55,239 bases of DNA from contig DATESZ010000155.1 in assembly GCA_035283845.1 (NCBI GenBank), forward strand, positions 1-55,239, read 5' to 3'. Numbering within the stretch: the stretch's first letter is position 1; every line of letters starts with the position of its first letter. Of the stretch, positions 5,501 through 33,490 are shown in pieces. The notes under the pieces were generated by a model. The model was not told the origin of the DNA. It searched no databases and was given only the letters and a program-made list of their open reading frames with translations. Source of the DNA: Syntrophales bacterium (GTDB taxonomy: Bacteria > Desulfobacterota > Syntrophia > Syntrophales > JACQWR01). The translations under genes were made by a program, and so were the position numbers.

Positions 5501-6163
5501 AAATATCAGCAGGATCGCTGATAAAAGACGCTTGGCCCACCTGGAGTTTTCGCCCATTGTGGCAGAGAATTCATTTGTAAAAATTTGTAATCTATCACAA
5601 AGAACCTCCAGTTTATACGTCATATCGCTTATCGTCTCCGGATTTGCTTCACCGGTTGTAATCATCTGCCGAATTTTAATTCCCAGTTCCGTCAATTCAG
5701 CGGCATACTTATCTGACCTTGCCCACAATTTGATGCCCTTATCCATATATTCAAAATTCCGAAATGTTTTAAAAAGGAAAATCATCCCCTCGATATCTTC
5801 CCGATGGCTGCCCCCCTTTTGAAAACCTTCGTGCACGACCGAAAGATCGGGGTGCAATTTTTCCAGTTCCATGCGAGCCATTTTGTAGCCAGTTATCCCT
5901 GCCATGTCCTCCAGAAATAGCTCGTATTTCTCTTCACTGCGTTTCATGGCGTATTCCAACAGATGCATAGCAGCGCTATTCACTCCTTTTGAATAGCTGG
6001 ATTCAGCGTTGATATACGCCCTTAAGGAAGAAAGGATGCCCAGCCCGAAGTTGCCAATAAGGAACATGCCGGCAATAGATGCCAGCACTACGAATATCGT
6101 AATGTACAGCTTGATCTTCAGGGAACGATCTGATGATTTTGTTTCAGTCGAAAAATTATTCAT
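2531..6163 (-). CDS. Hybrid sensor histidine kinase (TM, GAF, coiled coil, HisKA, HATPase_c, three receiver domains)
   Basis: GAF-like IGAIYIAEGDDRLRLVGSYA...GLIGQAA; long E/Q/K coiled coil; H-box [15 protein letters not shown]; DTGIGIP...GGTGLGLSISREL; three REC domains (ILVIEDDP, LLVVEDNE, ILVVDDDM...DIMMPVMDGYE). Confidence 0.85.
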   Translation of the reverse strand: MNNFSTETKSSDRSLKIKLYITIFVVLASIAGMFLIGNFGLGILSSLRAYINAESSYSKGVNSAAMHLLEYAMKRSEEKYELFLEDMAGITGYKMARMELEKLHPDLSVVHEGFQKGGSHREDIEGMIFLFKTFRNFEYMDKGIKLWARSDKYAAELTELGIKIRQMITTGEANPETISDMTYKLEVLCDRLQIFTNEFSATMGENSRWAKRLLSAILLIFAMVAAFICLGGLLFIVKIIQKMQNYSKELLDLNRMKAGQTAMHEMTQGEQDFSVVAPRVISHLCEYIGANIGAIYIAEGDDRLRLVGSYAYEKRKGSSDEFSFGEGLIGQAALEKKYIIMTHCPDDYVHIQSGIGSASPKNIIAYPLMKDGAVKGVVELGSLHEFSDWDIHFLERASINIAIVIEIIQTRNKTAALLEQTQQQNEELKVQEEELRRTNEELEEQDKALKESEEQLRVQQEELEVTNQELEERSEDLRQQKEEVVKRNQDIERARQLIEIKAKELEVASKYKSEFLANMSHELRTPLNSLMILSSLLMGNKDKNLTEKQVKFCSTINSAGADLLNLINDILDLSKIEAGKIVIHPEDIKLSRIIEDIKAKLEPIVQKKGLELKYQIDERIPERIVSDPQFLSQILNNLLSNAIKFTEKGHVALTIHKPTKEDMQVIGMPIEAVDGYIACSVADTGIGIPADKQNLIFEAFQQADASIRRKFGGTGLGLSISRELSRHLGGGIRLESELGKGSKFTSVISIVAQADKLKDSLSDAGQSTKATRMPTDVPDAALDSDRSEPAQVRDIDGMPVTSPQDVENIRDDRRKISKGDKAILVIEDDPVFARTLMDMAREQGFNALVAWEGKAALHLADFYIPSAIILDLGLPGGMDGLTILTKLKENLNTRHIPVHIISGHETKQESLRRGAVGFLRKPVSLDQLNGVFGRIESVISKQVKRLLVVEDNETESDSLKELLADENVEVVTAACAREALQAIKKGGFDCIVLDLGLPDMSGIELLENMRLSDHEPYVPVIVFTGKELTPEERVMLDKYAERVTIKDVRSPERLLDETALFMHRVEKDLPEEKRRVIRMLHDRDAIFDGRQILVVDDDMRNVFALISALEEKGLKIFTAANGQECLDMLAENTGIDLVLMDIMMPVMDGYEATRQIREQPRFKNLPIITLTAKAMKGDRASCIEAGASDYLSKPVDMEKLQSMLRVWLYK

Positions 6164-6181
6164 ACTTTGCCTTCCTTGCCG

Positions 6182-6294
6182 TTCACCTGAAAATACCTTT
6201 CACCCTCCCCCTCACCCCCTCCCCTTGAGGGAGGGGGAAGGGGGAGGGGTAATTTTCATTATCCTTTGTGACGGACACCGTCATGAGGGTTTCA
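6182..6294. repeat. 113-bp palindromic intergenic element, copy 1 of type A
   Basis: Identical except for one base to 19297..19409. Contains a C-tract/G-tract hairpin (ccctccccctcaccccctcccc ttga gggagggggaagggggagggg) and a tgacgg-aca-ccgtca hairpin. Its right end overlaps the stop codon of the MinD-like gene. Confidence 0.85.
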
Positions 6295-7518
6295 TTCGAA
6301 AAGATACCTTTTTTCTATCTGGTTCAGCCTGAAGGCCATCCTTTCCATTTCCCGGCTTTGCGGCAAGTCCGGAGTCAGGGCCACAAAAGGCGTGATCCGG
6401 TTGACGGAGTTGCTGATATCGTCGCTGGTGGCCATGGTTCCCAGCACCTGATTGTCAATATGCAGGTACTGCCTTACCACCTTCTGAAGGTTTTGAACGA
6501 TCTTCATATCCTGGCTGCTGTTAACCATGTTGCCGACAATCTGGAAGCGTTGGCGGGCCAGTACGGCGGCAGCGGTGCGGCGGGCCGGATGAGCCTCCTC
6601 CAGAGCGCCGATGAGGCCATGGAGCTTCTGAGGATCGGAGCCGGCCTGGTCCAGAAGGCAGGCGAATCCGCCGGAGCGTTTCAGGTCATGGAGGAATGCA
6701 GACTTGATAAAACCATAGGCATTCTGCAGCGAGGTCACCTGAGGCGTCACGACGATGATTTTATCGCCGGCCAGCCGGTACAGATCGAGCGTTTCATCGT
6801 TCATGCCGGCGCCCAGGTCGATCACCAGACAATCGGCATCGACCTGCCCGAGGTCGGAAAGCAGACGCGACATTTCCTTAGCCAGGAAGGCATCCACCTT
6901 GTTCTGGGCGCCGCAAATCAGGCGCAGACCATGAAAGGCGGTGGCAACCGTGATCTCGTCAAGGGAACGCTCTTTACGCAGGTAATCCTCTAAAGAGCTC
7001 TCAATCCTGGTTATGCCCAGCAGGGTATTGCAGTTGCAATTACCGAAATCGCCGTCCAGGAGGGCGACTTTGTGCTGCAGGTGCGATAAAGTAAGCGCCA
7101 GGTTCACCGCTACGATCGTTTTGCCGACGCCGCCCTTACCCCCGCCCACGGCAATCGTTTGACCGGCCTTATTGCGAACCACGTCAGGAGAAAGCGCCTC
7201 CCCATGTCCCTCAACTTCATCCAGGCCGACCTCCGGCCGGACAGGTCGAGGTCTGTTCTTTTCATTTTTAGTGACCCAGATCCTGACAACCCGGCCACCC
7301 TCCTCGGCGCTCTCATACCGTACGAGCGCACCGCTTAGCTCTATCTCGTTTCCTGTCGCAGGGTCCCGGAGAAAGAAAGCGAAATTGCCTGCACACAACC
7401 TCTGGATGGTCTCGTCAGAAAAACCTTCAGCACACTCAACTTGCAGACCGGCGGCCGATATGGACGCCACCTCATACTGGTGGCCGTCAAAGACAAACGT
7501 GGCCTTGATCAGATCCAT
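6292..7518 (-). CDS. MinD/ParA-family P-loop ATPase with an N-terminal beta-rich (PilZ-like?) extension
   Basis: Deviant Walker A GGGKGGVGKT, A' LLDGDFG, Walker B CLVIDLGAG. The ~110-aa N-terminal extension has SISAAGLQVE, which resembles the PilZ DxSxxG patch, but no RxxxR motif is present. It starts 1 nt after the stop of the mamK-like gene. Confidence 0.75.
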   Translation of the reverse strand: MDLIKATFVFDGHQYEVASISAAGLQVECAEGFSDETIQRLCAGNFAFFLRDPATGNEIELSGALVRYESAEEGGRVVRIWVTKNEKNRPRPVRPEVGLDEVEGHGEALSPDVVRNKAGQTIAVGGGKGGVGKTIVAVNLALTLSHLQHKVALLDGDFGNCNCNTLLGITRIESSLEDYLRKERSLDEITVATAFHGLRLICGAQNKVDAFLAKEMSRLLSDLGQVDADCLVIDLGAGMNDETLDLYRLAGDKIIVVTPQVTSLQNAYGFIKSAFLHDLKRSGGFACLLDQAGSDPQKLHGLIGALEEAHPARRTAAAVLARQRFQIVGNMVNSSQDMKIVQNLQKVVRQYLHIDNQVLGTMATSDDISNSVNRITPFVALTPDLPQSREMERMAFRLNQIEKRYLFE

Positions 7519-7519
7519 C

Positions 7520-8665
7520 CTACACCGAGGCGCTGATCAGCGCACCCATGGCGGTCGCCCGCAGCGGGTCGTGGGCCAGGCGCACCGACGATATTGCTAT
7601 TGGCATGGGGACCTCCTTCATGAGCTGCTCGAACTTAACCTTGAACCCATTCGGCAGGCATGTGCCGCCGGCCAGGACGATCGGTATGGCCTGATTGAGC
7701 CGGGGCAGTCTGTCGGACCGGGAGAGAATGCCTGACAATGTGGAAAGAAGGGTCATGATCAGGTCTTCATAGTAGATAATGAGCGCATTCTCCAGATTGC
7801 TCCTGGGGGTCCTGGCAAAGTCGAGGGATTCTTCCTTGATGATCCGCACGCGGTTTACCGTTTCGTGCATCATCCGGGCGACGGACGCGTCAACATCATC
7901 CCCGCCCCGGCTGATGCTGAAAACAAGTACCGGCACGGACAAGAAGGAGAAGCAGATATTGCACATGCCGGCGCCCATGCTGATACCGATGCCGGTGAAA
8001 TTGTCGCCGGCGAGCTCAGAAATCACAACCGCCATCCCTTCATTGACGCTTTTGGGCTTGTAACCCATCCCTGCCAGGTACTTCTTCAGTATGCCTTCGT
8101 GGAAAACCAGATCCGCCTCGAATCCCACCTCCGGGGCCGGCACGCTGAAGCACAGGGGCTGAGCCATTTCTGCCGCCTTGGGAAGCACCAGGTTGATAAT
8201 TTCCTTCATGGCCGGGATGGCGTAGATCTCCTCCGACGTAATAAGACCCTTTTTCATGGGGCGGCGGATTTCACTGTTAAAGATATTCGCAAACTGCAAT
8301 GCGTCATAGCCCAGGACCACGGTTTCATCTTTTATCTTGGTATGGGCCATCTGGCTCTTCACCAGCATATCCTTCAGGAACTGGGTTTCTGAAACGGCGA
8401 TAAAAGCGTTCATCTGATCGGCGCCGATCTGGTCGTCCTGTTTTATGCTGACGATCCGGCTGGTTCCGATATCGAGGCCGTACGCTTTTTTAGCCACGGA
8501 TCTGCTTTCCACATTCTTCCCCGATTCCTTCAGACCATCGACCTTGGTGATCAGCTTGTCCAGCGCAAGAGGATCAACCGTCTCACTGGCTCCCTGCAAC
8601 AGGTCATCCAAAACATTTTTATCATCCTTGTCGTCATCATTTTCTTCAACCATGTCACCCTCCAT
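7520..8665 (-). CDS. mamK: MamK-like actin-family filament protein
   Basis: Actin-fold motifs LDIGTSRIV (phosphate 1), GIGISMGAGMCNI (phosphate 2) and IVLAGGTCLP (adenosine). Size and magnetosome-gene context fit MamK. Confidence 0.7.
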   Translation of the reverse strand: MEGDMVEENDDDKDDKNVLDDLLQGASETVDPLALDKLITKVDGLKESGKNVESRSVAKKAYGLDIGTSRIVSIKQDDQIGADQMNAFIAVSETQFLKDMLVKSQMAHTKIKDETVVLGYDALQFANIFNSEIRRPMKKGLITSEEIYAIPAMKEIINLVLPKAAEMAQPLCFSVPAPEVGFEADLVFHEGILKKYLAGMGYKPKSVNEGMAVVISELAGDNFTGIGISMGAGMCNICFSFLSVPVLVFSISRGGDDVDASVARMMHETVNRVRIIKEESLDFARTPRSNLENALIIYYEDLIMTLLSTLSGILSRSDRLPRLNQAIPIVLAGGTCLPNGFKVKFEQLMKEVPMPIAISSVRLAHDPLRATAMGALISASV

Positions 8666-8681
8666 TCTTTATAAGTTTTAT

Positions 8682-8764
8682 ATGAAAATCCCCCCGCCCC
8701 CTTTACCAAAGGGGGGTAAGAGGGGATTTTCATGCGCCCTTGAGCCCGCTTCGAGCATGGGTGT
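8682..8764. repeat. Palindromic intergenic element, type B copy
   Basis: Perfect 12-bp outer arms atgaaaatcccc...ggggattttcat around a C-tract/G-tract core, followed by a second stem catgc...gcatg and a gggtgt tail. Same architecture as 26291..26389 and 33396..33490. Confidence 0.7.
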
Positions 8765-8792
8765 TATTTCATCGGTCGACATTGAAAAACTT

Positions 8793-9167
8793 TTACAATT
8801 TATATCTTGACAGGTCGATGATTGTCAAATTATCACTTTCGAGGCCGGATTTCATCATCTCCACCATGTCCCTGCCGAAGTGCATATAGAACTCCCTTTT
8901 GTCAGCCTCATCAATTAGGGCATCGCTTTTTACGAGGCTCATAATCGTAATTTTCCCCTCGGCGCCGCCTGCTTCGTACGGAGAGTCTTGGAGGCCCGAA
9001 CATATACTCCGAACGTAGGCGACGTATTTCCCGGCGTAGTACATCGTGTCGGCGAGGATATTGTTCAGATAGCCTCCAACCTTGCCTATGCCCTTAATGG
9101 CCTCATAGACGAAATCAGATGACTGCATCGAGGCAAACCCTTCCATTTCCGCTGCTGCTGTTTCCAT
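8793..9167 (-). CDS. Hypothetical 124-aa protein following the ParM-like gene
   Basis: ORF in the operon series with no recognisable motif. The Gly-rich N-terminal patch IKGIGKVGGYLNNIL resembles patches in other cluster proteins. Confidence 0.4.
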   Translation of the reverse strand: METAAAEMEGFASMQSSDFVYEAIKGIGKVGGYLNNILADTMYYAGKYVAYVRSICSGLQDSPYEAGGAEGKITIMSLVKSDALIDEADKREFYMHFGRDMVEMMKSGLESDNLTIIDLSRYKL

Positions 9168-9196
9168 CGTTTATCTCCCTTCATTAATTAGTTAGG

Positions 9197-10258
9197 TTAA
9201 CTCAACATGTAATCGGCCCCTTCCAGCACCGTATATATTGGCTGCTTCTCAATATGGACATCATAAAAGCGGTAACCGCCTTCCTCCAGGGATAAGCGTA
9301 GAATATCACCATTGAGGGATGCACCGCCGCCCGTTACCAGCAGCATGGCCGGCCACTCCACCCGGTTCGTATAATAAGAGGTCAGAGTATCCGTCGTGAA
9401 CCTGGTGAACTCCTTGTTCAAGTCCCAGCGCACATTTTCCATGACCAGTGAAATATCATATAAATAGCCCGCCATATCCCCTTCGTTGTCGCGACGGACT
9501 TCAACGTTCTCGCAACCGAGCTCAATCTGCTTCACGAGCCACAAAAAATGATTGTCGGCTATGTTCTCTTCCGCAAAGAGCCGCACGATCTTTTCGTAAT
9601 AAAAGGATACTCCACAATCTACAGTCTGGAACAACTCCACACCCTTATCGCCATCAACCACATAGAGCTTTGTTTTATTATAGCCCACATCGACGACCAG
9701 GGCCGTCGTAAAGTCCCTGATATTTTTTTCCAGGAATCCCGCTACCGCATCGCCGGAAGGCAGCAGCGAAAGACGGATCGTTGCCTCCTTCCTGAGGCGG
9801 CGTTTATCATAACCGCGAAACGCGGAGATGTCCACCTTCTTATTGATCAGCGCCGCCCCAATTTCCTTAAAAACCTGCGCCCTGTGGTAATTGTCGACAA
9901 CCACGCTGATTTCCAGGTCATCATTGTTGTCGGCATAATCAAAGATGATCTTTTTCAGAATCAGGAGGGCCCTGCCGGCGCCGAGCCCCTCGCCATCGAA
10001 GGCGCTCATGATCTGTTCCAATCTCAGAGAGCTGCTGCAGTCATAACCGACTGTATAAAGATCTCCCTCGTGCTCGTAATACATCCGGTCCTTATCAATA
10101 TCGCCGGCCCGACTGACCAGCGTGGGGAAAAAGCCTCTTCCGTAAAATTGATAGGGCTGATCATCCCGGTCTCCCCCTCCATTTTCAGAGGCTCGGCGCA
10201 TTACGTACACCTTGGTATAAAAACATCCCGCATCAACCAGTATTTTTTTCACATACAT
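9197..10258 (-). CDS. Actin-fold ATPase, ParM/Alp-like (second actin paralogue)
   Basis: ILVDAGCFYTKVYV (phosphate 1), ALVVDVGYNKTKLYVV (phosphate 2), MLLVTGGGASLNG (adenosine). Confidence 0.65.
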   Translation of the reverse strand: MYVKKILVDAGCFYTKVYVMRRASENGGGDRDDQPYQFYGRGFFPTLVSRAGDIDKDRMYYEHEGDLYTVGYDCSSSLRLEQIMSAFDGEGLGAGRALLILKKIIFDYADNNDDLEISVVVDNYHRAQVFKEIGAALINKKVDISAFRGYDKRRLRKEATIRLSLLPSGDAVAGFLEKNIRDFTTALVVDVGYNKTKLYVVDGDKGVELFQTVDCGVSFYYEKIVRLFAEENIADNHFLWLVKQIELGCENVEVRRDNEGDMAGYLYDISLVMENVRWDLNKEFTRFTTDTLTSYYTNRVEWPAMLLVTGGGASLNGDILRLSLEEGGYRFYDVHIEKQPIYTVLEGADYMLS

Positions 10259-10297
10259 CCTAATCCCGATAAACGGGATAAGTGCATCCGGACATGA

Positions 10298-10801
10298 TTA
10301 GAACTTGATTTCTTTCGGCGCGCTTGCTTTGCGCAATTCGTGATAGCTTTTTCTTTTCTTCTGAGAGACAGCGGTCTTATCCACTTCCAGAAGCTTGGCG
10401 GCATCCTTCGGGGAAAACTCCCTCAAGTCTCCGCCGGCTAAAGGCGCCGCCAGACCTCTGCTCTGAAGATCCCTGAGCATGCCCCGTATTTCCCTGATCT
10501 CCTGATGGAGGGCGGTAGATCCGTAATCACCAGGCGCGGCCTGTCGCTCCTCCAGGAGGCTGTCTAAATGGTCAATCCGGTCCTGGGTGGTTTCATAGAG
10601 CTTGCCCGTGACGATTCGTTCCACCAGGTTTTGAAAAATCAGGAGCGGATCACTGCCCTTGCGGCGGCTTTTATCCACGAGTTTTAAGTACAGTTTCAGA
10701 ACGAGCTTCAGCACTTCCTTGGCGCCCTCGGGATGACATTGGGAGAACTTCTCCATAAGAGTCCTCAAATCTTCATCCACTACCAGGTAATAAACTCCCA
10801 T
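10298..10801 (-). CDS. Hypothetical 167-aa protein following the larger actin-like gene
   Basis: ORF in the operon series. Helical, with a basic C-terminus (KTAVSQKKRKSYHELRK). No family recognised. Confidence 0.4.
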   Translation of the reverse strand: MGVYYLVVDEDLRTLMEKFSQCHPEGAKEVLKLVLKLYLKLVDKSRRKGSDPLLIFQNLVERIVTGKLYETTQDRIDHLDSLLEERQAAPGDYGSTALHQEIREIRGMLRDLQSRGLAAPLAGGDLREFSPKDAAKLLEVDKTAVSQKKRKSYHELRKASAPKEIKF

Positions 10802-10854
10802 AATTTCCTCCCTTTCATTGTCAGAACCATCCGATATTGACTGACCGGACCCGC

Positions 10855-12180
10855 CTAATCCGGCTTAGCCGTGGCCGGTGCATTGTCTTGCCCCGGTTTA
10901 CCCCGATCCGGACCTGTCTCTTCCGTATCCTTGAGAATCGTCCGGATTTGGAAGCGGGTCTCGACCTCCTTGCCCAGGGTCAGCGCAATATGGTCGCGCG
11001 CCAGCAGCATGAATCCCACGCAGTTGATATAGCGCGGGTCAATCCCAATCTTATTGGGATGGATGATGCGTTCGTCCAGAACAGTTTCGGGCCAGCCGAA
11101 AAAGGCGCCGATCTCGCTTTTGATGGTATCATAAAGCAGGTGCGCACCGCCGCCGATGATAGTAAAATACTCAATGGTCTGGCCTTTTTGCGACAGCGCC
11201 GTGATGTCACGGGCCACATGTTCCATGATGCGTCGGCCCATAAACAGCGATTCCTGCGCCAGCAACCGGCTGAAATCATAAACACCGATGCCGGGAATCT
11301 CGATTTTGAAATCCTTCAGGGGAAGCCGCTGCATGATCCGCTGCTCGGGGATCTTGAACTTCTGCTCACTGGACTCAAAAATGGTTTCACTGATATTTTT
11401 CGTAATGGTGTAGATGCCTTCTGTTAGGGAATCGGCCAGGTTGATTTCAGCCTCATTGTCGATTATGGGCAGCTTGATCCAGGTGCCGTGACCGATATCG
11501 ATGATGTAGGTGTTGTACACATCCATATTGTACTTGCTGAACAAGAGCGCCATGTAAGCGCCGTAGGCCTGGTACTGCATCACCGAAAAATCAAGCTGGA
11601 TGCTGATCTCTCGCACTTCACCCGTGGCCACGTTCTTGGCCTTGATGGCAACGAACTTTTTTTCGCCGTCGGCAGCGAGATGTTCTTTCATGTAGGCCAG
11701 GAATTTCTCCAGAATATTCTCGCCATGGCGCACGGTGATGCCAAAGCCGAAGCCTGCCTCTTCAATGGGCTTGCCTTTTTTTTCCATCTCCTGGCTAAGC
11801 AGAAACAGGCCGGCCTTGATGGCGAGAAAGGCGTCATCATAGTTCTGGATAAGCCCCTTGTGGGTGAACCAGCTCGTTTTCTCGGAACTTCTCGTCATGG
11901 CGCCCACATATCGCCAGGCGTTCCGACTGTCGTCAAAAATTGCCAGGTTCTTGATCCAGCGATTATCGGAAGACCTGTTCATCATGCGCCAGCTCTTTTC
12001 CATATTGGCCGAAAGGGCATCGCCGACCACGGACGTAAAAATGACTATCGTGTCGTCACAGCAAAACTTGCTTGCCGAGGTCCCCATTTCGCCTCCTATG
12101 GCAACGCATTTGCTTAAATCGGGCCCGGCAATCGCCTCCTTCCCATTTAATTCACTATTTAACTCTCCGCTCGTTGTCAT
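10855..12180 (-). CDS. Actin-fold ATPase, ParM/Alp-like (possibly mad28-type)
   Basis: VAIGGEMGTSASK (phosphate 1, degenerate), YIIDIGHGTWIKL (phosphate 2), FTIIGGGAHLLYD (adenosine). 441 aa. Confidence 0.6.
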   Translation of the reverse strand: MTTSGELNSELNGKEAIAGPDLSKCVAIGGEMGTSASKFCCDDTIVIFTSVVGDALSANMEKSWRMMNRSSDNRWIKNLAIFDDSRNAWRYVGAMTRSSEKTSWFTHKGLIQNYDDAFLAIKAGLFLLSQEMEKKGKPIEEAGFGFGITVRHGENILEKFLAYMKEHLAADGEKKFVAIKAKNVATGEVREISIQLDFSVMQYQAYGAYMALLFSKYNMDVYNTYIIDIGHGTWIKLPIIDNEAEINLADSLTEGIYTITKNISETIFESSEQKFKIPEQRIMQRLPLKDFKIEIPGIGVYDFSRLLAQESLFMGRRIMEHVARDITALSQKGQTIEYFTIIGGGAHLLYDTIKSEIGAFFGWPETVLDERIIHPNKIGIDPRYINCVGFMLLARDHIALTLGKEVETRFQIRTILKDTEETGPDRGKPGQDNAPATAKPD

Positions 12181-12217
12181 AAGGGTACTTTTCTCCTTCT
12201 TAGGTTCCGGGCGCAGA

Positions 12218-14524
12218 TCACTTCAACATATTGCGCAGTTCATCCATCTCTGTCACCAGCGCATCTCGGGATTGGATAGCCCAATTATAATCAGCCCGCA
12301 GGGATTCAAGCTCCTGCAAAACCAGATCCTTTTCATTTACTTTCTTTTCAACTTCAGACTCCAGTGCCTTAGTCCGGCCTTCCGCAAGCTTCAGTTGACC
12401 TTCTATTTCCCCGGCCTTCCTTATGGCCTGGGTCAGAGCCTCAGTCAATTCATGCTCCTTCTTCTGAGCCGCCGCCCTGATCCGGTCCGTCTCACCGGTT
12501 ACAGTGGCCCTCAGCTCTTCCACTTCGGCCTGTGCCGCCCTCTTCATCGCGGCAAGATTTACTTCCAGCGCCTCGGTGAGCTTCTTATGCTCCATAACTG
12601 CCGCTTCCTTGTAACGGCTCTTTTCCGCTTCGGCCTTCTCCCGCTGCTCCTGCACACTTTTTTCGAGCTGTACCTTCTCTTCCGTCATCTTTGCCCTGAT
12701 TGCGGCCAGTTCCAGCTCCCCGCGCTGGCGATCCCTTTCGACCTCAGCCAATTTCGCCTGGCGGTCTTTCTCAAGCTCGGCTTTGAGCTGTTCGATCTGA
12801 AACCAGGCGGCATGCTCCTGCTCTTCCTTAAAGGCGGCCTGCAGAGCTTGCAATTCGGCCTTGTTCCGCTCCTTTTGCAGTTCTATGCTGCGCTCGGCCT
12901 CATCCTTTTTCCGTGCCAGGTCTTCTTCCACCCGTTTACATTCGGCGTCGATTTCGGCCAGCTTTGCCTCCAGCCGTTTACGGTCGTCTTCGATTTCGGC
13001 CAGTTCTTTCTCCACGCGCTTACGGCCGGCGTCGATTTCGGCCAACTTTGACTCGCGGTCTTTTTCCAACTCGGCCTTGAGCCTCTCGATTTCCCGGGCG
13101 GCACTCTGCTTTTCCTCCTCGAAGGCATTCTGCAGAGTTTGCAATTCGACCCTGTTCCGCTCCTTCTGAACTTCCACGACCCGCTCGGCCTCATCCTTTT
13201 TCCGCGCCAGTTCTTCTTCCACCCGTTTGCGGTCCGCTTCAATTTTAGCCAGAGTCGCCTGGCGGTTCTCTTCAAACTCGGCCTTTAGCCTCTCGATTTC
13301 CCGGGCGGCATTCTGCTTTTCCTCCTCGAAGGCATTCTGCAGAGTTTGCAATTCGGCCTTGTTCCGTTCCTTTTGCACTTCTACGACCCGCTCGGCCTCA
13401 TCCTTTTTCCGCGCCAGCTCTTCTTCCACCCGTTTGCGGTCCGCTTCAATTTTGGCCAGCGTCGCCCGGCGGTTCTCTTCAAACTCGGCCTTGAGCCTCT
13501 CGATCTCGCGGGCGGTGCGCTGTTTTTCCTCCCCAAAGGCTTCCTGCAGCGCTTGCAATTCGGCCTTGTTCCGTTCCTTTTGCACTTCTATGACCCGTTC
13601 GGCCTCATCCTTTTTCCGCGCCAGTTCTTCTTCAGCGGCCCTGCGCTGCTGCGCCATCTCCTCTTGCATCGCCTCCCGTTCCCTGGGCACGGAAACCCGC
13701 AGATCACCGTTTTCTGCGCGCAGCTTCTCCATTTCCTGGTGCAACTTATCATAGTCTGACTTGATGCGGCTAAGCTCGGCTTTCTCCCGAACCAACTGGA
13801 TATTTTCATCCTGCGCACCCTTCAGTTCCTGCCGGAGTGTTTCCCGTTCCCGTTCCACCCGGTCGATGTCGCGTTTCTTGAGCTCCTCCAGCTCCTGGCT
13901 CTTGGTCTGCAGGGAGCCGATCAGAGCATCTTTGTCTGCCATCTTCTTCCGGATCCTGTCCACCTCGCCCAGGGCGTCCTTCATTTTGGTGAAGCTTTCC
14001 TCCTCCACGTCCCTGATCTTGGCCATCTGACCTTCCAACTGCTGCCGGAGATTCTCCACATCCTTCGCCTTTTCGACGATATTATGCAGCCGTGCGTAGG
14101 CAGGCCGGATGTCGGCGCTCTGCAGGATGCCCCGGCCCATTTGATAGCTTACCGTGCGGGCGTTGATGCTCTCGACAAGATCGAAGTAATTAAGCGGCTT
14201 TCTGAAATACTTGTGGATATGCCCGCTATCGATGGCCTGCACGACCTTTTCAATGGCGCTGTAGTCGTGCGATGTGGCGATCCGCAGCACTGATCCGTCA
14301 AGACCCTTCAGGTCATCCAGAAGGCCGGCAAAGGGCTTGTCCGATATTCCGGCGTCCACAATTACGACCTGGGGTCTCAACTGTGCAAATACCTTAAGGC
14401 CGTTATCCCCGGTGGCGCTGGTGAAAACAGTAAAGTGACGGGACAGCTCCGCGGCCGCTTCCGTCAAAAAGTCCGTGTCTTCATCGATGATCAGTACTTT
14501 CACGTGATATTCCATCATATTCAT
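12218..14524 (-). CDS. Receiver-domain protein fused to a ~600-aa repetitive coiled coil
   Basis: N-terminal REC-like domain (VLIIDEDTDF...VVIVDAGISD...HKYFRKPLN). The rest is E/K/R/A heptad-rich sequence containing 69-aa tandem repeats and 14-aa mini-repeats. Confidence 0.75.
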   Translation of the reverse strand: MNMMEYHVKVLIIDEDTDFLTEAAAELSRHFTVFTSATGDNGLKVFAQLRPQVVIVDAGISDKPFAGLLDDLKGLDGSVLRIATSHDYSAIEKVVQAIDSGHIHKYFRKPLNYFDLVESINARTVSYQMGRGILQSADIRPAYARLHNIVEKAKDVENLRQQLEGQMAKIRDVEEESFTKMKDALGEVDRIRKKMADKDALIGSLQTKSQELEELKKRDIDRVERERETLRQELKGAQDENIQLVREKAELSRIKSDYDKLHQEMEKLRAENGDLRVSVPREREAMQEEMAQQRRAAEEELARKKDEAERVIEVQKERNKAELQALQEAFGEEKQRTAREIERLKAEFEENRRATLAKIEADRKRVEEELARKKDEAERVVEVQKERNKAELQTLQNAFEEEKQNAAREIERLKAEFEENRQATLAKIEADRKRVEEELARKKDEAERVVEVQKERNRVELQTLQNAFEEEKQSAAREIERLKAELEKDRESKLAEIDAGRKRVEKELAEIEDDRKRLEAKLAEIDAECKRVEEDLARKKDEAERSIELQKERNKAELQALQAAFKEEQEHAAWFQIEQLKAELEKDRQAKLAEVERDRQRGELELAAIRAKMTEEKVQLEKSVQEQREKAEAEKSRYKEAAVMEHKKLTEALEVNLAAMKRAAQAEVEELRATVTGETDRIRAAAQKKEHELTEALTQAIRKAGEIEGQLKLAEGRTKALESEVEKKVNEKDLVLQELESLRADYNWAIQSRDALVTEMDELRNMLK
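12842..13640. repeat. In-frame tandem repeats inside the coiled-coil gene (207-bp unit plus 42-bp mini-units)
   Basis: The unit starting cagag/cagcg...ttgcaattcg recurs at 12842, 13133, 13340 and 13547. Spacings are 291 (207+84), 207 and 207 nt. The gtcgatttcggccag mini-repeat recurs every 42 nt in 12940-13050. Confidence 0.85.
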
Positions 14525-14543: not shown

Positions 14544-16550
14544 CTATAAACGGTTGAATTCCTCCGCTACGCTCTCCTCATTCACAGAATCTTTGCCGGC
14601 CAGGGTAGCCGACGCACAAACACCATCCAGCATGCGGATCGCCTTGCCGGGAAAACACTGCCCGGGCAGAAAACGGGCCGCCATTTCCACACAGGCTGCC
14701 AGTGCCTGTTCGGTAATCTTCAATCCGTAATGCTTTTCATAGACAGACTTAATGCCTCTCAGGATAGCGAGGCTCTGGGGTACGTCCGGTTCAGGAATGG
14801 TAACGGTCTGGAAGCGCCGCGCCAGCGCTCGGTCCGGTTCGATGTACTGCCGGTATTCCTCGGAGGTTGTTGCTCCGATGCAGGGAAACTCACCGCGCGC
14901 CAGGGAAGGTTTCAGGATGTTCTCCGCACCCGTCGAGCCTTCCGTCGCTCCCATCCCGAGCAGCGTATGAATCTCGTCGATGAAAACGATGATCCGATCG
15001 ACGTTGCTTTTTACCTCCTCCACCAGCCCCTCGATGCGGGTTTCAAACTCCCCACGATACTTGGTCCCGGAAAGCATGGCGTTCAGGTTCAATGCAATGA
15101 TCCGTTTATCCCTGAACATGACGGGCACTTCCTTTTTCACGATCAACTGGGCCAGCCCCTCCACCACCGCTGTTTTACCGACGCCCGCCTTACCTACCAG
15201 GATGGGATTATTGGCCTCCATCTGCGACAATACCTTAAGGCAGGAATATATCTCCCGGTCGCGGCCGACTATCGGCTTGATCCGGTTCTCCTCCACCTGC
15301 CCCGTGAGGTCCCGGCCAAACCGCTCCAGAAAGTGCAGACGCCGGCCGGCTGTTTCATCCCGGATAACACCGAAAATGGGCGCGACTTCAGGGGGCAGGT
15401 CCAGGGTAGGGGCCAGTATGACCACAAAACTATGCCTTTGTTTTAGCACCTCCGGCATGGATTTAATGATGGAAATCAGCTCCACGAATTCCTGGCCCGA
15501 CATATTTTCCCGCCGCAGGTAATAATGAAAATCCTCCAGCAGATAGAGGGTATTTTTCTGGCATTCGTTACGGATCACGCCGAGGGCTTCGAGGGGCGAT
15601 AGTTTGGCGTGGAGCAGATAATTATCGCTAAACATATATTTTCCCGCATACTTACCGCCGATATCCTGAAATCCTTCGGAAAAGGTCCACTGGAGAGGGA
15701 TTAAGCCCATCTGCGCGGAGACACGCGTAAACCTGTCGATCAGCTTGCGTGAATCAGTATAGGCCGCGATAAAGAGACTGATGTCCGAGGCAAATTGCTT
15801 CGCCAGGGCGCCATCCTCGGCAGATATCGGGGGTGCAATCAGCCTCCGCAGAGACCGTTCCCCGTCCCGGGCCCCATCCTGGCCGCTGTCCGGTGACGGG
15901 AGGCGGGCGGAATCACTGCTGTAATCCGCAGGCGGCGTAGCGGCTGCGCCTGCGTCATTGGCCAGGGCATAATCGCTGCCGGGCATTACCTCTTCCTTGA
16001 ATTCTTCAACAGGCCAGTCAGTAAAATCGCTGCGGACAGCCTTCTGGCGACCGCCGTCGCGGTCCGGCTGCGGCGGAAAAAAATCCGGGGCATTATGCTG
16101 CCCGGGCAAGCCCCCGGTAAAGTTGAACCACCTGAGATCGAAGCCCTTGATCAGTTGCGCCTGTTCGGCCTGGCTCATGGCCAGGAACCGGTCGGAAAAG
16201 TAAACATAAATGTCAAATTCAAAAGGCGTGGGCAGGGGGTGCTTTTTTATAAAGGGAAAAGTGCCCGCGCCATTTTTTCCTTTCATCAAGCGGTAACTCC
16301 TCTCCAGATAAGCCTTTTCCGAGTCCAGGGGATCATAAAAGGCGAGGCGGAACTCACCGGCAACGCCGCTGCCCACGAGCTGCTGTAAATCGTGCATCAG
16401 TCCTCCCATTAATGCTTCGGGAATAATGCCGTAGTAGCCGTTCAGCAGTTCAATATCGTAGCTCAGGGTCTTATAAAGGACAGCTTTGGTCGCCCGGACC
16501 GTTTCCGGTCGTATGGGGTATCTCTCTTTTTTGAATAGACCCTGAAACAC
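14544..16550 (-). CDS. AAA+ ATPase with a single ClpA/ClpB D1-like module and a novel ~390-aa N-terminal region
   Basis: Walker [16 protein letters not shown], Walker [36 protein letters not shown] (Clp D1 signature region). No second AAA module. GTG start overlaps the upstream stop by 1 nt. Confidence 0.8.
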
Positions 16551-19168: not shown

Positions 19169-19260
19169 ATAAGGCCCTCCTTATCCTCTCGATACTGACG
19201 TTTCACTCGAAAATGCGCATCTAAGTATTCGATTTCCTTATATTCACCTGTGTAGCCATT

Positions 19261-19409
19261 TTCATTCTCATTTGTGTCGGGTACCGTCATGAGGGTTTCA
19301 CCTGAAAATACCTTTCACCCTCCCCCTCACCCCCTCCCCTTGAGGGAGGGGGAAGGGGGAGGGGTAATTTTCATTCTCCTTTGTGACGGACACCGTCATG
19401 AGGGTTTCA
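19261..19409. repeat. Composite type A element: 40-bp direct repeats flanking the C/G-tract hairpin
   Basis: 19297..19409 equals 6182..6294 with 1 mismatch. 19261..19300 and 19370..19409 are direct repeats (36 of 40 identical). Lies immediately 3' of the HEAT-repeat gene stop codon. Confidence 0.85.
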
Positions 19410-26270: not shown

Positions 26271-26290
26271 TAAGTCCCCCTTTCCTTTAT

Positions 26291-26389
26291 ATGAAAATCT
26301 CCCCCTCCCTTTATCCCTCCCCCTCGACGGGGGAGGGAGGGGTGGGGGTGATTCTCATGCTTCGTTAATCCAACCCCAAGCATGGGTGT
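26291..26389. repeat. Palindromic intergenic element, type B copy
   Basis: atgaaaatct + ccccctccctttatccctccccctcgacgggggagggaggggtgggggt (49 bp, identical to 33404..33452) + attctcat + stem catgctt...aagcatg + ggtgt. Lies just 3' of the parB-like stop. Confidence 0.85.
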
Positions 26390-26391
26390 CG

Positions 26392-27036
26392 TTATATGAT
26401 AAGCTCATCGATGATGTTTAAAAGATTTTGCAATTCCAGCAAAAGCTGGGTTTTCAGGCATTGCCAGCCTGGGTCAAATTTATCATAATGCCGACATTCA
26501 TCCTGTGTCTTCTCAGGTAAACGATTAAGTTTTATTGCCGCGGAAATAGCCGGCTGCGCTTTGCCAATGGCAACAGCGAGTTTTTCCTCGGTATAGCCGT
26601 GCTGCTCCATCATACAGCCCAGGGCCGCGGCCTCTTCCACAGGTTTGAGGTTTTCACGCTGCAGGTTCTCAATCAGCGAGATTTCCAGGGGATTGCCCTC
26701 GGTAAAAATGGCCGGGATCTTCTCCAGACCCGCCATTTTTGCCGCTCGCAAACGCCTGTTGCCGGCCACTAAAATGATCTGACCAGTTTTGGCTTTACGG
26801 ACGATAACGGGCTGGTACAACCTGTTGTGTTTGATCGAGTTGGCCAGCCCTTCGAGAGCTACCGGGTCAAAATATTTTTCCGGCAGTTCCGGGTCGGTAA
26901 GAATCAGGTTAATGTCCAACAGGTAATAACTGCCCTCCCGGCAGTCGTTCAGAATGGCCGGATGATCTTCCTGCCTTGGTCTTTCCTGTGCCAGCTTGGT
27001 TGTTTTGCCGGCTAATTTACTTCTAATGTCTGTCAT
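26392..27036 (-). CDS. parB: ParB/Spo0J-family protein (ParB N-terminal domain + HTH)
   Basis: LVAGNRRLRAAKMAGLEKIPAI (arginine patch, GxRRxRA), ISLIENLQRENL, HTH YTEEKLAVAIGKAQPAISAAIKLNRLP. ATGA overlap with the upstream parA. Confidence 0.8.
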   Translation of the reverse strand: MTDIRSKLAGKTTKLAQERPRQEDHPAILNDCREGSYYLLDINLILTDPELPEKYFDPVALEGLANSIKHNRLYQPVIVRKAKTGQIILVAGNRRLRAAKMAGLEKIPAIFTEGNPLEISLIENLQRENLKPVEEAAALGCMMEQHGYTEEKLAVAIGKAQPAISAAIKLNRLPEKTQDECRHYDKFDPGWQCLKTQLLLELQNLLNIIDELII

Positions 27037-27788
27037 AGGCTTAGAAACTCACTAACAAGTTGTTCATAATCCTGTGAGCCGAGGCTATCGAGTTTGAAAT
27101 CGAAAATCGGCTCCTGGGCCATTTGGGATTGATTCAGGGCTTCATTGCGTCTGATATAGGTATTGAGGATCAAGTGCTTAAAAGGCTCTAACTGCTGGAA
27201 TACCCAGTCATTACTGATTTTGTTTCTGCTGTCGTACTTGGTCAGGAGGATCCGGATAAAATCGGTCTTGTTAAAGTCGCTGTTTTTTACATGTTCGATG
27301 GTTTCCATCAGATCGGCAAAACCGTCCAGGGCGTAGCGTCCCATTTCGCAAGGGACAATGATAAAATTGGCGGCATATAAGGAGTTGATCGTCAATGTTC
27401 CCAGGGTAGGCCGGCAGTCAATGACAATATAATCAAAATCAAGACCGTCAATGGCTTTTTTCAATAGGGTTTCTCTGAAAAGTTCCGGAGCTAATTGCTG
27501 CTCAATCTTATCGAGGTGGATATGTGAGGGGACAATAAACAGATTATCGGCTTTTGTCGGCAGAATCGCATCTCCGATAGGCTTTTTCCTGGCCAGGACG
27601 TCGATGATCGAGGCGGTAAAGCTCTCCGGCTCGATTCCTATGCCAATCGTTGAATGGGCCTGGGGGTCCATGTCAATTAACAAGGTCCTTTTGTCTTGCC
27701 GGGCCAGGCCTGCCGCAAAATTGATTGACGTAGTCGTCTTGCCCACTCCGCCTTTCTGATTGATGATGGCAATGATGTTTTTATTCAT
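27033..27788 (-). CDS. parA: ParA/Soj-type partition ATPase
   Basis: IIAIINQKGGVGKTTTSINFAAGLA (deviant Walker A with signature Lys), LLIDMDPQ, YIVIDCRPTLG (Walker B). Confidence 0.9.
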   Translation of the reverse strand: MNKNIIAIINQKGGVGKTTTSINFAAGLARQDKRTLLIDMDPQAHSTIGIGIEPESFTASIIDVLARKKPIGDAILPTKADNLFIVPSHIHLDKIEQQLAPELFRETLLKKAIDGLDFDYIVIDCRPTLGTLTINSLYAANFIIVPCEMGRYALDGFADLMETIEHVKNSDFNKTDFIRILLTKYDSRNKISNDWVFQQLEPFKHLILNTYIRRNEALNQSQMAQEPIFDFKLDSLGSQDYEQLVSEFLSL

Positions 27789-33362: not shown

Positions 33363-33395
33363 AATAATCTCTCCTTCTTTCTTTATTGTCTTTAT

Positions 33396-33490
33396 TGAAA
33401 ATGCCCCCTCCCTTTATCCCTCCCCCTCGACGGGGGAGGGAGGGGTGGGGGTAGTGTTCATCCTTCGTTATACCCGACCCGGGCATGGGG
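33396..33490. repeat. Palindromic intergenic element, type B copy
   Basis: Shares a 49-bp identical core with 26301..26349 and has the same tail architecture (cat ccttcgtta...gggcatggggg). Lies between the mamA stop and the mamI start. Confidence 0.85.

Follow-up and report, generated by a model that had tools for sequence, protein, structure and literature searches.

Two ParM-type actins with putative adaptor genes in a magnetosome gene cluster that lacks mamK

How magnetosome chains form without MamK is a question that two recent papers leave open. All 21 magnetotactic Bdellovibrionota metagenome-assembled genomes (MAGs) are without mamK, and Mad28 has been named as the sole candidate replacement (PMC13200544); magnetotactic Elusimicrobiota are said to have no chain determinants (bioRxiv 10.1101/2022.07.08.499144). 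The same question is raised by a 55,239-nt contig of an uncultured Syntrophales relative (assembly GCA_035283845.1, contig DATESZ010000155.1), referred to here at its full length as the window. Pfam and NCBIfam annotation identifies it as a complete magnetosome gene cluster, and no MreB/MamK-type protein is encoded anywhere in its 55 kb. The last operon of this cluster ends in a block of six genes, three of which encode actin-fold proteins:

10855-12180, minus strand: A441, a 441-residue actin of the ParM/Ta0583 type (AlphaFold2 model, Foldseek, homologues)
10298-10801, minus strand: s167, 167 residues, putative adaptor of A441, directly downstream of the A441 orthologue in 18 loci
9197-10258, minus strand: A353, a second ParM-type actin of 353 residues (AlphaFold2 model, Foldseek)
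8793-9167, minus strand: s124, 124 residues, putative adaptor of A353 with a conserved C-terminal motif
7520-8665, minus strand: Mad28-type actin of 381 residues, Pfam Volactin family
6292-7518, minus strand: Mad29-type ATPase of 408 residues, a MinD/ParA-type P-loop domain with a PilZ-like N-terminus

These are the open reading frames (ORFs) that an earlier, sequence-only reading of the window had described as three actin-fold genes in series followed by an ATPase gene. All six were confirmed at these coordinates, and they are conserved across phyla and are not chance ORFs. From A441 to mad29, the intergenic gaps are 53, 39, 29, 127, and 1 nt, the last being the single nucleotide 7519 that separates the stop of the 381-residue gene from the start of the 408-residue gene. 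We infer, with a probability of roughly 0.55, that A441–s167 and A353–s124 are two ParMR-derived filament–adaptor pairs recruited to the magnetoskeleton of a cluster without MamK. The new elements are A441, A353, and their partner genes; the Mad28–Mad29 pair is already known.

AlphaFold2 models built from family alignments reached a predicted local distance difference test score (pLDDT) of 81.8 and a predicted template modeling score (pTM) of 0.81 for A441, and 85.7 and 0.85, respectively, for A353. In Foldseek searches of the PDB, the best matches of A441 were Ta0583, Bacillus thuringiensis ParM, pCBH ParM, Alp7A, Dh-cParM1, pSK41 ParM, and CorM, while those of A353 were R1 ParM, Ta0583, Cbc-ParM, pCBH ParM, Alp12, and pSK41 ParM, with CorM also among the matches. 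For both proteins, the leading matches have E-values of 1e-15 to 1e-12, and filament formers of the ParM, Alp, or Ta0583 kind account for all of the first 15–20. Lower ranks are taken by MreB, FtsA, eukaryotic actin, and Hsp70 nucleotide-binding domains, and no sugar kinase appears in the top 50 for either protein. These confident models, together with conserved phosphate-1, phosphate-2, and adenosine motifs, give A441 and A353 the actin fold of the acetate and sugar kinase/Hsp70/actin (ASKHA) type, and the modeled structures identify both as ParM-superfamily actins and not as Hsp70-type proteins or sugar kinases, in line with the sequence-only reading. Sequence searches return far less: Pfam PF21522 matches are sub-threshold (19.9 bits for A441 and 16.8 bits for A353, against a gathering threshold of 27.8), NCBIfam gives no match for either protein, and phmmer searches of PDB sequences gave no match for A441 and chance-level matches for A353 (E 0.79 and 1.2).

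These structural matches also bear on the possibility that A441, A353, or both (most likely A353) are non-polymerizing ASKHA proteins that regulate, nucleate, or cap another filament. Such a role would be in keeping with the faster evolution of A353, which changes about twice as fast as A441, with the poor conservation across its family of a stretch aligned by eye with the ParM catalytic-glutamate segment, and with the Hsp70 nucleotide-binding domains among the Foldseek matches. It is countered by the filament formers that fill the leading ranks, by the missing sugar kinases, by the conservation of both phosphate motifs and the adenosine motif in A353, and by the conserved partner ORF that A353 has of its own. 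A non-polymerizing role is therefore regarded as very improbable.

Within its family, A441 conserves the motifs GGE(L/M)GTSxSK, DIGHGTW, and IIGGGA. The sequence-only reading had recognized the actin motifs, which are present and conserved in A441 and A353 alike, and had called the phosphate-1 motif of A441 degenerate; the latter proves to be a family-invariant variant, GG(E/D)(L/M)GTSxSK, in which the Glu or Asp lies one position after the usual Asp. G29, G33, T34, S35, and K38 are invariant in a 15-sequence alignment. The family comprises 210 homologues with 47–88% identity to the window protein, found in Syntrophales-like Desulfobacterota, Bdellovibrionota, an Elusimicrobiota single-amplified genome (SAG), Wallbacteria-like MAGs, Planctomycetota, and Myxococcota. 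Mean column identity across phyla is 60% (15 sequences). An exhaustive profile search of 1.84 billion cluster representatives recovered only 26 proteins with E<=1e-3, six of them with E<=1e-30; the family is tight and isolated in sequence space. Conservation is very high and surface-wide, and no other protein of the block is as well conserved as A441: identities to the orthologues in the loci L004, L009, and L018 are 80, 69, and 67%, compared with 71, 51, and 42% for Mad28 and 59, 34, and 32% for A353. Strong conservation of this kind is atypical of plasmid ParMs. One loop combines low model confidence with invariant residues and, on the monomer model, is a candidate D-loop-like inter-subunit contact:

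11854-11895, minus strand: A441 residues 96-109, pLDDT <50 in the monomer model, with five residues (R97, S99, W104, T106, and G109) invariant in 15 sequences from several phyla

A353 belongs to a smaller family, with 75 homologues found, and conserves the motifs DxGxFYTK, DVGYNxTK, and TGGGA. Profile–profile alignment with hhalign links the A441 and A353 families weakly, at E 3.4e-4 over 156 columns, and links neither of them to the Mad28 family (E 0.2 for A441 and 0.05 for A353). By these comparisons, the three proteins represent three separate actin families. An origin of A441 and A353 by recent duplication was considered and is ruled out by the weakness of the link between them.

The small gene that follows A441 offers the most specific evidence for a filament–adaptor arrangement. 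The sequence-only reading had proposed that each filament has its own adaptor. A homologue of s167 stands directly after the A441 orthologue in 18 loci, with A353 following in the same loci. The protein consists of a conserved N-terminal domain of about 85 residues, a variable linker, and a basic C-terminal tail. Across the family, this tail follows the motif Y-x3-R-[KR]-x(n)-K-[ILVM]-x-[FL]-COOH. When the motif was applied as a regular expression to the 3,951 ORFs of 40 loci, it selected 27 proteins, and every one of these is encoded by the ORF directly downstream of an A441-type actin. The selected proteins range from 162 to 727 residues and come from at least four lineages; other s167 homologues fall outside the expression solely by having Phe in place of Tyr. 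The tails compare as follows:

10301-10360, minus strand: C-terminal tail of s167, …KKRKSYHELRKASAPKEIKF, which fits the family-wide motif
Window adaptor, 167 residues: …SYHELRKASAPKEIKF
Adaptors of Wallbacteria-like MAGs, 195-251 residues: …SYKDKRKKLHKLKF
Myxococcota adaptors, 523-727 residues: …TYRSRRSKTKRVKL
Planctomycetota adaptor, 408 residues: …AYTEHRVKLPKITF, a near-match by eye that lies outside the expression

The N-terminal parts of these tail-bearing proteins are otherwise unrelated between lineages. ParR and CorR attach to their actins through a free C-terminal peptide (PDB 4a62; bioRxiv 10.1101/2025.06.27.661541). Because the tail is exclusive to ORFs that follow A441-type actins and is shared by proteins with differing N-termini, s167 is most likely an adaptor of A441 with a ParR-like architecture, whose tail would dock on the actin. 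Two further features were seen in the Myxococcota-like MAGs. Their adaptors (L035:11192-12763, L036:4923-6599, and L037:11207-13390) have a weakly MshEN-like N-terminus, a domain type that binds cyclic di-GMP (c-di-GMP), and an A353-like second actin follows the long tail-bearing adaptor.

The resemblance to parM–parR also raises the possibility of a true type II ParMRC system for DNA segregation, perhaps duplicated, that serves the chromosome, the magnetosome island, or an unrecognized replicon, with s167 as a ribbon-helix-helix (RHH) ParR working alongside ParAB. The ParM fold of both actins, the order of actin gene and small gene, and the ParR-like tail would all be expected of such a system; the magnetosome cluster itself carries genes for ParA and ParB at 26392-27788, and the N-termini of s167 and of the Wallbacteria version show, by eye, a strand-helix-helix-like pattern. 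An RHH fold for s167 would nevertheless be a guess, as neither Pfam at E<=10 nor a PDB profile search gave an RHH or ParR match. In wider searches for any family (Pfam with E up to 10, NCBIfam, and PDB profiles), s167 returned noise. No parC-like iterons or tandem repeat arrays occur in 6000-12600, and the intergenic gaps of 29-127 nt are too short to leave room for a centromere. Searches with tblastn found no match to A441 or A353 in 72,556 plasmids and none to A441 in 50,697 phages, so that a plasmid or phage origin was rejected, and contigs that host A441 homologues reach 0.55 Mb. The unrelated N-terminal domains of adaptors in other lineages, such as the weak MshEN-like one, and the strong conservation of A441 likewise speak against segregation, which we consider improbable.

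The parM–parR likeness noted in the sequence-only reading stands for gene order, and the tail adds to it, but it does not extend to a partition locus. In the absence of a centromere and of plasmid-like features, the module is read as a ParMR-derived machine repurposed for organelle organization. Repurposing of this kind fits the example of CorMR in Anabaena, a chromosomal ParMR without parC that serves as a cytoskeleton under Min control (bioRxiv 10.1101/2025.06.27.661541).

The second pair follows a similar plan. The small protein s124 is acidic (pI 4.6), and at least 10 loci, that of Elusimicrobiota among them, have an s124-type ORF directly after A353. Hidden Markov model matches in this position were obtained in L004, L007, L008, L009, L011, L016, L018, and L039, and L013 and L019 show the C-terminal motif as well. 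These ORFs end in the motif (D/E)NL(T/L)II(D)xS(R/K)(Y/F), represented in the window by the following segment:

8796-8834, minus strand: C-terminal motif of s124, …DNLTIIDLSRYKL, conserved after A353

Searches of Pfam, NCBIfam, and PDB profiles assigned s124 to no known family and returned noise. Its position and C-terminal peptide suggest that s124 is most likely an adaptor of A353, and like s167 it carries the conserved C-terminal peptide of ParR-type architecture. A Bdellovibrionota subclade that contains the MAG FG-1 has no s124-type gene after A353; the position is taken there by a gene for a histidine kinase or a response regulator:

L010:12723-14255, L014:10905-12200, and L017:12812-14173: histidine kinase or response regulator in the position of s124

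The third actin was initially described as MamK-like, a designation that does not hold. The 381-residue protein matches Pfam PF25216 (Volactin) at 5e-77 over residues 61-379 and scores 22.8 bits against the NCBIfam MamK model NF040964, for which the cut-off is 400. It has no Pfam MreB_Mbl match at E<=0.1 and no phmmer match at E<=1 among PDB sequences, a set presumed to hold MamK entries. Volactin membership, the NF040964 score, and the missing MreB_Mbl match together rule out MamK. The protein is 56% identical to WDW37_15050 (P0288), encoded on a 44,397-bp contig of FG-1 that also carries the A441 homologue of this MAG (P0053), and its relatives all carry PF25216. In the FG-1 study, mad28 is present in all magnetotactic Bdellovibrionota clusters and mamK never is (PMC13200544). 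In Nitrospirota, mad28 and mad29 are known neighbors (PMC9376291), and the cluster of Desulfovibrio FSS-1 ends with mad29 (PMC7951924). The Mad28 of RS-1 places the chain at the curvature of the cell (PMC12748827).

Given this known adjacency and cluster-end position, the 381- and 408-residue genes are identified as Mad28 and Mad29 and not as MamK and MinD. The 381-residue protein has the features expected of Mad28, namely an actin of the mad part that is distinct from MamK and lies directly upstream of a MinD-like gene; no Mad28-labeled sequence entered this comparison, and none of its top 120 matches bears the name Mad28. By Pfam family, adjacency, and cluster position, it is therefore classified here as a Mad28-type actin. 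PF25216 takes its name from the Haloferax volcanii actin, and the relationship between Mad28 and volactin seems undiscussed, in that no paper using both words was found. The deltaproteobacterial bin nXXbin1 (L007) has two Mad28 paralogues, P0310 and P0311, with 50 and 47% identity to the window protein, on a 21-kb contig shared with its A441 homologue.

The 408-residue protein has a deviant Walker A motif, GKGGVGKT, and matches to Pfam ParA, CbiA, and AAA_31. NCBIfam MinD models score it at 71–79 bits, below their cut-offs of 201–213, making it a member of the MinD/ParA superfamily and not MinD proper. The sequence-only reading had identified the ATPase type correctly, and the beta-rich N-terminus that it had noted can be specified further:

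~7189-7518, minus strand: PilZ-like N-terminus of Mad29
~6391-7161, minus strand: MinD/ParA-type P-loop domain of Mad29

Bdellovibrionota orthologues in L018 (L018:14829-15188) and L039 (L039:14993-15352) match Pfam PilZ at 25.9 and 22.2 bits, respectively, where the cut-off is 22.5. The window copy has no Pfam PilZ match and no N-terminal RxxxR motif. Comparison with these orthologues identifies the N-terminus as a degenerate PilZ-like domain, and Mad29 as a PilZ–MinD/ParA fusion. The domain hints at c-di-GMP control that may be lost or altered in the window copy.

Synteny ties the actin module to magnetosome genes. A scan of 185,579 species genomes yielded 37 loci. The characteristic gene order runs from a HEAT-repeat gene (Mad23-like) through coiled-coil genes, an AAA+ ATPase, and a protein with a REC domain and coiled coil to A441, s167, A353, s124 (in some genomes), Mad28, and Mad29. 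The six-gene block occurs in full order in one further locus, L004, and for the most part in about 18 more genomes. The order is kept in L004 to L006, which are Syntrophales-like MAGs (L005 and L006 break off after A441 and A353), and 14 Bdellovibrionota/Oligoflexia MAGs, FG-1 and FG-2 among them, retain most of it. In both groups, the A441–s167–A353 trio lies inside the mad operon, between mad27/24-like genes and mad28, and in L009 and L011, mamA and mamQ lie <=5 kb from the module. In a Polyangiaceae MAG, an A441 relative lies just downstream of LemA, magnetochrome, TauE, and DUF4388 (REC-like) genes, with a HEAT-repeat gene on its downstream side. A crude regular expression for an MreB/MamK-type D-x-G-G-G-T actin found none within ±10 kb in 40 related loci.

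This distribution is also what separates a magnetoskeletal function from that of a general-purpose chromosomal ParMR-like cytoskeleton, serving shape, polarity, division, or motility under two-component or c-di-GMP control, which would have come to lie near magnetosome clusters or hitch-hiked into them and would have no role specific to magnetosomes. For a general cytoskeleton, CorMR is a precedent in cell shape, and A441 with its adaptor does occur outside magnetosome gene clusters in Wallbacteria-like MAGs and Planctomycetota, as does the full trio in Ca. Anammoxibacter. Genes for histidine kinases, response regulators, REC, or DUF4388 proteins are recurrent direct neighbors of the module, and the PilZ domain of Mad29 orthologues and the weak MshEN domain of Myxococcota adaptors are both c-di-GMP receptor folds. 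However, the genes lie inside or directly beside magnetosome genes in three phyla, and their order between mad27/24-like genes and mad28 is fixed in Syntrophales-like and Bdellovibrionota genomes. The cluster-associated A441 sequences of these two groups also fall together. In a neighbor-joining tree, Syntrophales-like, Bdellovibrionota, and Elusimicrobiota sequences group with one another, and those of Wallbacteria-like MAGs, Planctomycetota, and Myxococcota form separate clades. A general cytoskeleton is accordingly judged rather unlikely, but it is the leading alternative, ahead of DNA segregation and of a non-polymerizing regulator.

Several observations nevertheless weigh against a magnetoskeletal function. 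Wallbacteria-like MAGs carry the actin and adaptor alone, among unrelated genes; Planctomycetota KatS3mg102 has the actin–adaptor pair with no visible mam genes; a Ca. Anammoxibacter contig holds the full trio beside housekeeping genes; and a contig of the Elusimicrobiota SAG has four of the genes amid ParA and two-component genes, with no core mam gene. Since the trio or pair occurs where no mam genes are visible, the module is not specific to magnetosomes. The lack of mamK in the Syntrophales-like group refers to sequenced neighborhoods rather than whole genomes. The poorly conserved catalytic-glutamate stretch of A353 and the failure of s167 to match any family count on the same side. The analysis itself shows the folds, the limits of the families, the synteny, the conserved tails, and the lack of parC and of plasmid relatives, whereas polymerization, binding of the tails to the actins, a role in magnetosome positioning, and replacement of MamK are steps that we infer. 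The Elusimicrobiota locus (L019) had been considered as a magnetosome cluster and was dropped after Pfam annotation of its 17.8-kb contig showed no core mam gene.

If the two pairs do belong to the magnetoskeleton, each small protein would be the private adaptor of the actin that precedes it, as ParR is for ParM, with its conserved C-terminal peptide docking on the filament and its N-terminal part binding cargo or a scaffold. Filaments of A441 and A353 would build or distribute chains in these lineages, as MamK does in others, Mad28 would set the position of the chain, and regulation would fall to Mad29 and the neighboring REC-domain protein. A ParMR-type machine would thereby serve organelle organization, much as CorMR serves cell shape. 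A bolder proposal, which we hold tentatively and with the odds somewhat against it, is that A441 with its adaptor and A353 with its partner form the missing chain-forming cytoskeleton of MamK-less magnetotactic Bdellovibrionota, of this Syntrophales-like lineage, of Myxococcota, and possibly of Elusimicrobiota. This cytoskeleton would be derived from ParMR, use interchangeable cargo adaptors that share one docking tail, and be controlled by REC/c-di-GMP signaling and a MinD-type ATPase, and the same family would be a widespread, previously undescribed chromosomal actin that serves other cargo in bacteria that are not magnetotactic.

On this basis, A441 and A353 are candidate filament proteins for chain building in magnetotactic bacteria without MamK, where such filaments seem to be missing. 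No paper was found that mentions ParM-type actins in magnetosome clusters; in magnetotactic Bdellovibrionota clusters, these actins and their partners are present and annotated as hypothetical proteins. A preprint on Elusimicrobiota describes two genes, mae4 and mae5, shared with magnetotactic Bdellovibrionota and Planctomycetota (bioRxiv 10.1101/2022.07.08.499144); these may be the actin genes described here. A magnetoskeletal role would give a concrete and testable answer to how chains are built without MamK, and heterologous assays in Magnetospirillum gryphiswaldense ΔmamK exist (PMC10653835). It would also weaken mamK as a universal marker of magnetotaxis and provide a second case, after CorMR, of a plasmid-partition machine turned cytoskeleton, here for an organelle. 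A common docking tail on adaptors with differing N-termini would offer a simple, general rule by which the cargo of this family could be sought in other phyla.

Beyond the six-gene block, the window encodes the core magnetosome proteins MamP (magnetochrome), two cation diffusion facilitators (MamM/B), two LemA proteins (MamQ), MamA, and MamE, together with a TauE/MamO-like protein and FeoB. Its mad-type genes include a HEAT-repeat gene, coiled-coil proteins, and an AAA+ ATPase, and CheR, CheB, and a hybrid kinase are encoded past the end of the cluster. Two genes lie in succession upstream of A441:

12218-14524, minus strand: protein with a REC domain and a long repetitive coiled coil, 37 nt upstream of A441, part of a 13-kb actin unit
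14544-16550, minus strand: single-ring AAA+ ATPase resembling the ClpB/ClpV D1 domain (Pfam/NCBIfam), part of the same unit

The first has a sub-threshold Pfam Response_reg match at residues 10-120 (22.9 bits, gathering cut-off 30.2), a weak SMC-like coiled coil, and 207-nt (69-residue) tandem repeats, and is syntenic in 12 loci. The AAA+ gene is syntenic in 15 loci and is a probable candidate for the Mad27 equivalent. REC or REC-like genes also precede the A441 relatives of Ca. Anammoxibacter (L041, 277 residues) and Polyangiaceae (L040, DUF4388). In the former locus, a MazEF toxin-antitoxin pair lies just upstream of the A441-like gene (L041:8822-9426), and a gene annotated as '23S rRNA intervening sequence protein' lies between the adaptor and the A353-like gene (L041:11349-11708). 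ParA homologues occur near the actin module in several loci, for example L019:6207-7067 and L007:9854-10597, and the Elusimicrobiota ParA (L019) is 42% identical to that of the window.

The cluster appears to be divided into units by repeat elements. These elements and one further inverted repeat are as follows:

6182-6294, no strand assigned: 113-nt double-hairpin element, copy 1, abutting the mad29 stop codon
19297-19409, no strand assigned: 113-nt element, copy 2, abutting the stop of the HEAT-repeat (Mad23-like) gene
8682-8733, no strand assigned: perfect 12-nt inverted repeat, ATGAAAATCCCC / GGGGATTTTCAT, in the 127-nt gap between s124 and mad28, the sole sizeable gap of the series

The two 113-nt copies form a direct repeat with 99% identity and bracket the 13-kb unit (19168 down to 6292) that contains the three actins, their partners, the AAA+ ATPase, and the REC–coiled-coil protein. 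Each copy consists of two hairpins, one with a C-rich/G-rich stem of about 21 bp and the other being CCTTTGTGACGGACACCGTCATGAGGG, and the element could be a reused terminator, a repetitive extragenic palindromic (REP)-like element, or a trace of recombination. A partial third copy lies at 19258-19308. A related pair of 97-nt repeats, 82% identical and with the same kind of C-rich/G-rich hairpin, follows the parB stop (26290-26386) and the mamA stop (33393-33489). Elsewhere in the window, 51563-53791 encodes a 742-residue Kelch-repeat beta-propeller protein in a region of local G+C 0.59-0.65, compared with about 0.50 for the cluster.

Among characterized systems, Ta0583 of Thermoplasma (PF21522, MreB-like_C) is the best or near-best structural match of A441 and A353, and both give weak PF21522 matches; these Pfam scores are sub-threshold, and sequence identity to the two actins is 17–19%. 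MamK with MamJ or McaAB in Alphaproteobacteria is likewise encoded in magnetosome clusters, and the filament-plus-adaptor role in aligning or distributing magnetosomes is the one proposed here. MamK is MreB-like, however, whereas none of the three actins of the window reaches MamK or MreB models, and the adaptors are unrelated to MamJ. With the Mad28 and Mad29 of deep-branching magnetotactic bacteria, the 381- and 408-residue genes share Pfam family, adjacency, and cluster-end position. Mad28 of RS-1 acts beside MamK. The window and Bdellovibrionota lack MamK, and there the genes of two ParM-type actins come before mad28.

Type II ParMRC systems (ParM of R1, pSK41, pCBH, and B. thuringiensis; Alp7AR; AlfAB) share the actin fold, provide the best structural matches, and have the same arrangement of an actin gene followed by a small adaptor gene, the adaptor having a linker between its folded N-terminal part and its conserved C-terminal peptide. 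They differ from the module in having parC iterons, plasmid or phage relatives, and a ParR/RHH domain detectable by sequence. The window instead has two unrelated pairs in tandem within an organelle gene cluster, and A441 is far more conserved than is usual for plasmid ParMs. CorMR (PDB 9rmi) resembles the module in being chromosomal and in lacking parC, and it works with a Min-family regulator, to which Mad29 would correspond; CorM is among the Foldseek matches of both actins, and the CorMR adaptor, with its disordered linker and essential free C-terminus, can be likened to the adaptors of the window. CorMR belongs to another sequence family and to a context of cell-wall and division genes, whereas the module of the window is set among magnetosome genes, has as its Min-like partner a PilZ–MinD fusion of the same operon, and combines two actin–adaptor pairs with Mad28.

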